Assembly (NCBI RefSeq): GCF_009834535.1
Contig: NC_045696.1
Span: 64,916,001-64,980,000, forward strand
Length of the DNA: 64,000 bases
Source of the DNA: Camelus ferus
Lineage: Eukaryota
Reading direction: 5' to 3'
Numbering within the stretch: position 1 is the stretch's first letter; each line of letters begins with the position of its first letter. Position numbers and translations under genes: made by a program. This document shows positions 26,323-26,434 of the stretch, piece after piece. Below the pieces are notes generated by a model, which worked only from the letters and a program-made list of their open reading frames with translations, had not been told where the DNA came from and ran no database searches.

Positions 26323-26434
26323 AACCCCAGCTGAAAGGAATTGTGACAAGGTTATTCAGCCAGCAGGGATATTTTCTGCAGATGCACCCAGATGGTACCA
26401 TTGACGGGACCAAGGACGAGAACTAGCGACTACA
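26323..26434 (+). CDS. FGF12: FGF12 internal coding exon (start of the shared beta-trefoil core), disrupted by a 1-bp insertion and premature TAG at 26424-26426
   Basis: Acceptor ttttgttttgcAG at 26321-26322 and donor GTaagg at 26435. Manual translation gives (E)[33 protein letters not shown]. Removing T26424 restores ...DENSDY(T), matching the FGF12 core as I recall it. Confidence 0.97.

Follow-up and report, generated by a model that had tools for sequence, protein, structure and literature searches.

An extra T in FGF12 exon 2 of the Camelus ferus assembly is most likely a consensus insertion error

FGF12 exon 2 and its supernumerary base

The window, i.e., the whole stretch of 64,000 nucleotides of Camelus ferus DNA that was analysed, carries exons 2 and 3 of FGF12 (FHF1), and exon 2 contains one T too many (Table 1). 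The exon is bordered by the acceptor ttttgcag before 26323 and by the donor gtaagg after 26434, and AG/GT is found at all four splice sites of exons 2 and 3. Translated from 26325, exon 2 ends in ...TKDEN*RL. The 33 residues before the extra T agree without exception (33/33) with residues 68-100 of the human FGF12 chain 4jq0_A, and also with 1q1u_A, and in exon 3, 34/34 residues are identical to residues 105-138 of 4jq0_A. Between the human-identical residues 100 and 105, 4 residues have to be encoded, for which 12 nt are needed; the assembly has 13. An earlier note on this stretch had described an exon with one base too many, an in-frame TAG plus a frameshift caused by T26424, FGF12 codons at all remaining positions, and four intact splice sites, and the counts and the translation given here confirm this description.

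Without the T, the exon reads N-S-D-Y-T, as proposed in the same note, and alpaca FGF12 has N-S-D-Y-T at this place: The alpaca records P0044, P0012, and P0135 run as ...KDENSDYTLFN..., uninterrupted across the site. The position which the note gave for the stop, Ser39 in the numbering of isoform B (the short isoform, beginning with MESK), agrees with P0012. Reading through the TAG would not rescue the protein either, as had been argued, because the shifted frame, continued from exon 2 into exon 3, runs into a TGA there.

T26424 is a single base, to which no chance statistic applies. In fourteen DNA-like runs from one organism (6 studies), a share of 0.96-0.97 of the words sampled from 24500-28500 is present, which shows that the locus is widespread in this organism, with a measure that cannot resolve one base.

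The remaining parts of the gene were searched in the 2.09-Gb assembly, which consists of 2043 contigs. In exon 4 (G000:C1:65109123), 66/66 residues are identical to human, so that exons 2-4 amount to 133/133 checked residues identical to human, with intact splice sites. Exon 1A, the alternative first exon, and exons 3, 4, and 5 are present and open; exon 2 is the one with 112 nt. The gene shows no sign of decay, and the denial of a decayed pseudogene in the earlier note stands.

There is one FGF12 locus in the genome, and the remaining matches are the paralogues FGF11, FGF13, and FGF14 on other contigs. Apart from the extra base, the residues encoded by exons 2-4 are 100% identical to the human FGF12 chains, and FGF13 chains score lower. 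Among the 62 exon-level matches of a genome-wide Pfam FGF scan, FGF12 exon 2 is the only first or middle exon interrupted by a stop. The FGF14-like paralogue exon at locus L002 is open.

Two side observations concern the FGF family in this genome. The locus G000:C31:16457968-16458327 looks like a processed FGF pseudogene, as it comprises a whole FGF domain (profile positions 3-124) as a single unbroken stretch and contains one TAG. The alpaca records P0044, P0012, and P0135 have a C-terminus unlike canonical FGF12, for which a matching open exon (87% identity) is present here. This exon is located 3.3 kb upstream of canonical exon 5, outside the window, and may be a last exon used alternatively, as annotated in camelids.

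Table 1 Features of the FGF12 gene and of the other exons considered (plain numbers are positions in the window)
Feature	Position	Strand	Remarks
FGF12 (FHF1) exon 2	26323..26434	+	112 nt in the assembly, 111 expected; common to all isoforms
Supernumerary T	26424..26424	+	Flanked by C26423 and A26425; outside a homopolymer
In-frame TAG made by the extra T	26424..26426	+	Codon 39 of the short isoform, codon 101 of the 243-aa isoform
FGF12 exon 3	52306..52409	+	104 nt, intact; gcctag|CC ... TCA|gtaagt
TGA ending the +1-shifted frame on TAG readthrough	52388..52390	+	Frame of exon 2 continued into exon 3
FGF12 alternative first exon	G000:C1:64795870		Open (FGF12 protein search)
FGF12 exon 1A	G000:C1:64899776		Open; 99% identity to alpaca exon 1A (search with alpaca and other FGF12 proteins)
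FGF12 alternative last exon (candidate)	G000:C1:65122273-65122386		Open (FGF12 protein search)
FGF12 canonical last exon (exon 5)	G000:C1:65125617		Open (FGF12 protein search)
Protocadherin break	L004		A run of 6; 5 restores the frame
Protocadherin break	L005		Extra A adjoining an A
Protocadherin break	L006		Extra T between C and G; sister L007 without it
Protocadherin break	L007		Extra T between A and G
MAP1B +1 break	L014:5564-5607
Open plakin exons			PLEC 2073 aa; MACF1-like 1807 aa; DST-like 1819 and 638 aa; further plakin exon 860 aa
Open large exons			SACS 3854 aa; APC 2219 aa; APC2 1659 aa

Single-base frame breaks in other large exons of the assembly

Very large, strongly conserved coding exons of the same assembly were located by small Pfam domains, which served as anchors. 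A break that lies elsewhere in such an exon has no influence on its detection by the anchor. All candidates were scored in most anchor searches, and 150/174 and 150/227 in two of them. The 7tm_1 search, in which the best 147 of 1641 candidates were scored, is biased to intact genes and was kept out of the rate. The Forkhead search (39 matches) was not counted, as expected lengths cannot be judged there without references. EPPK1 was also left aside, since a collapse of its repeats or an error copied between them could raise the rate artificially.

The large conserved open frames add up to 254 kb and contain 9 single-base frame breaks, 8 of which are +1 and 1 of which is a missing base. The break rate is 3.5e-5 per base (95% CI 1.6-6.7e-5). 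Genes other than protocadherins contribute 5 breaks in 108 kb and protocadherins 4 in 146 kb, and the two sets agree in rate. The chance of a break is thus about 0.4% per 111-nt exon. When 33 Mb of mammalian coding sequence is assumed for scaling, roughly 1,200 (530-2,200) broken coding exons are expected genome-wide. The inserted bases seen are all A or T, and 3 or 4 of the 9 breaks are, as in FGF12, a lone T outside a homopolymer.

Protocadherins: Of 57 large variable exons of clustered protocadherins, 53 are open over at least 788 aa and 4 are short (320, 693, 422, and 399 aa). In each short exon, the first ORF is followed in the +1 frame by another one, which matches the intact neighbour. 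Nucleotide alignments show that the four loci (L004-L007 on G000:C3, 98.33-98.72 Mb) have one base more than the paralogue. Clusters of the protocadherin type contain real young pseudogenes, and some of the four breaks could be of this nature. Residues 523-916 of the Camelus bactrianus record P0278 ('protocadherin alpha-1-like') are identical to L006:877-2058, in the first (N-terminal) half of the exon, at 392/394 positions. P0278 stays in frame past the L006 site, continues with paralogue-like sequence and misses about 2 cadherin repeats, and the comparison is therefore ambiguous. The record is a mosaic and probably a faulty gene model.

Desmoplakin: The last exon (DSP, G000:C20:5040500-5048500) is split into 794 and 308 aa in frames 1 and 2. 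The upstream frame matches PRD-B (5dzz_A) at 61/61 residues and the downstream frame matches PRD-C (1lm5_A) over 213 residues, with plectin repeats in both pieces. The +1 break is bounded to L011:4951-5004, between the linker and PRD-C, and this interval could not accommodate an intron. The break is most simply explained by a lone inserted T at L011:5000, between C and G, which presumably fits the human desmoplakin protein. Orthologues do not pin the junction, as the linker is missing from P0154, a goat fragment, and the records from birds and snakes stop before the junction. The other plakin exons are open (Table 1).

MAP1B: Exon 5 (L014, G000:C3:47312500-47322400) is divided into 1275 and 924 aa in frames 0 and 1, with an overlap of 44 nt. 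Upstream of the break lies the MBL_MAP1B domain (E 1e-155), and downstream of it lie eight neuraxin repeats. The identity of the extra base is ambiguous, the candidates being a T flanked by A and G and one member of a CC or GG pair.

BRCA2: Exon 11 (L015, minus strand, G000:C14:17331500-17339500) is made up of four abutting ORFs of 399, 657, 201, and 474 aa, which lie in frames 2, 0, 2, and 0 over 5,059 nt and of which the last three contain BRC repeats. The three single-base breaks are a +1 in a short A run, a -1 in a T run, and a +1 T beside a T. The 5'-most ORF (399 aa) has no Pfam family and a best Atlas score of 0.76, and the first junction is deduced from the abutment of the ORFs only.

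Open exons: Besides the large exons of SACS, APC, and APC2 (Table 1), the survey shows open frames in nineteen connexin genes, in XIRP1 and XIRP2, and in three IRS genes. In contrast to the exons with a single break, one connexin copy (G000:C37:19372556-19373193), which is split in two and has three TGA stops, is probably a real pseudogene.

EPPK1: This epiplakin-like gene beside PLEC (L012/L013, G000:C25:858000-876900) switches frame five times in 15 kb. Its tandem units are near-identical, with three units of 1570 nt and two of 1569 nt, and each 1570-nt unit shifts the frame by +1. This suggests one error or one real change which was copied across the repeat units.

Origin of the extra base

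The base is present in the assembly, the gene is otherwise perfectly conserved, and several essential genes carry like lesions, at a rate of about 3.5e-5 per base. By a statistical argument from the error rate of the same assembly, we regard T26424 as a consensus insertion error, with a probability of about 0.93. Three breaks in one BRCA2 exon in addition to those in DSP and MAP1B, all in one viable animal, are not credible biology. A technical bias is suggested by the ratio of 8:1 between extra and missing bases and by the restriction of the inserted bases to A and T. Among real small indels, deletions prevail, and a real 1-bp insertion is in most cases a copy of the adjoining base. The earlier note had argued against an error because the inserted base is not in a homopolymer. 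This argument fails, as lone T insertions are also found at L006 and L007, in desmoplakin according to the best reading, and possibly in MAP1B. The first three of these make the FGF12 lesion the same kind of event, and T26424 would thus belong to the class of lesions that recur in this assembly.

The choice between a recent null allele and a consensus error had been left open in the earlier note. Its account of the anatomy of the lesion holds throughout (exon length, phase, TAG, downstream TGA, Ser39, and splice sites), and the evidence now strongly favours the error over the null allele. A real recent loss-of-function allele would be a germline 1-bp insertion, probably heterozygous, on the haplotype picked by the assembler. 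The presence of T26424 in the assembly agrees with it, and so does the lack of any other lesion in FGF12, as is expected for a very young allele. The review PMC11591406 describes FHFs as intracellular modulators of sodium channels and attributes human FGF12 disease to gain-of-function missense variants or duplications; according to the same review, homozygous FGF12-null mice are born and are ataxic. Given these disease and mouse data, a heterozygous null is plausible in a living animal, and a real heterozygous loss-of-function allele would probably be tolerated. However, isolated 1-bp lesions in strongly constrained genes of this assembly are commoner than real variation allows. Real frameshift alleles in a constrained gene are estimated from human figures at ~1e-7 to 1e-6 per base per assembled haplotype, and on these figures, a real allele is 40-700 times rarer than the measured error rate. 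Moreover, T26424 does not duplicate the adjoining base, unlike most real 1-bp insertions, and lesions as odd as this one recur in essential genes of the same assembly. We therefore consider a real private allele unlikely.

Still less can be said for a fixed unitary pseudogene, in which FGF12 would have been lost in the species or in camelids. The TAG and the frameshift are all that speaks for it, and this single lesion stands against the complete identity to human over exons 2-4, the open state of the other exons, the intact splice sites, and the annotation of alpaca FGF12 as intact. As the gene is otherwise intact here and intact in alpaca, the FGF12 lesion must be either extremely young or not real, and an old or camelid-wide loss of FGF12 is refuted. 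A full-text search for FGF12 and camel gave no report of FGF12 loss in camel among the matches listed, judged by title and abstract. A fixed loss is accordingly very improbable. A lesion that is real and is bypassed, by a cryptic donor, by skipping of exon 2, or by recoding, has the lowest probability of all and is nearly negligible. By arithmetic only, the GT at 26395-26396 would give an in-frame exon of 72 nt, and skipping of exon 2 (0 nt) would also keep the phase. Beyond its GT, the cryptic donor is a poor match to the consensus, and either product would be without the first beta-trefoil strands, which are 100% conserved; for these reasons, rescue by the cryptic donor or by exon skipping was rejected. 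Readthrough of the TAG is no help in a shifted frame, and no slippery or recoding signal is seen at the site. Jointly, the readings other than an error and a real private allele carry very little weight.

Meaning and comparison with known systems

With T26424 taken as an assembly insertion error, FGF12 exon 2 of the animal is most likely of normal length (111 nt) and encodes ...KDENSDYT..., like its alpaca and human counterparts. FGF12 would then be an ordinary intact intracellular FGF-homologous factor, which modulates voltage-gated sodium channels. For FGF12 biology, the finding is most likely without consequence, and FGF12 is to be regarded as intact. For the genome, about 1 in 250 conserved coding exons of the size of FGF12 exon 2 is expected to have a spurious single-base indel. 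As DSP, MAP1B, and BRCA2 are among the affected genes, any gene loss, premature stop, or frameshift derived from this genome needs confirmation at the level of reads. The absence of a homopolymer is an unsafe criterion for a real variant here because several of the errors are a lone T outside homopolymers.

If the insertion were real, the consequences drawn in the earlier note would follow. Exon 2 is common to every isoform and the last exon junction is far downstream of the stop, so that nonsense-mediated decay (NMD) would be expected and the beta-trefoil would not be formed. The animal would then carry a natural FGF12/FHF1 null allele of a large mammal in the heterozygous state, or homozygous knockouts could occur if the allele is segregating. 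Such a knockout of a sodium-channel modulator would contrast with the gain-of-function alleles of the human disease.

Compared with human FGF12/FHF1 (4jq0_A, 1q1u_A), the camel gene has the same residues in exons 2-4 and the same plan of 111-, 104-, and 199-nt exons except for the extra base. The assembly has one T more; if this T were real, the protein would be cut short at residue 101 (numbering of the 243-aa isoform). FGF12 models of other species, namely FGF12a of Morone saxatilis (P0096) and FGF12 of Vipera latastei (P0126), are flagged as 'LOW QUALITY PROTEIN', a label which marks gene models whose genomic frame needed correction. Whereas the classic error of long reads concerns the length of homopolymers, several breaks in the camel assembly are a lone T outside of them. 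In the 'Mind the gaps' report, protein-truncating residual indels are documented for polished long-read assemblies, with 25-80% of genes affected in three human assemblies (bioRxiv 10.1101/285049). The camel lesions resemble the assembly errors described there, in that an isolated 1-bp indel lies in an otherwise perfectly conserved exon and many such lesions are spread over essential genes, and among the camel lesions likened to them, extra bases dominate (8/9).
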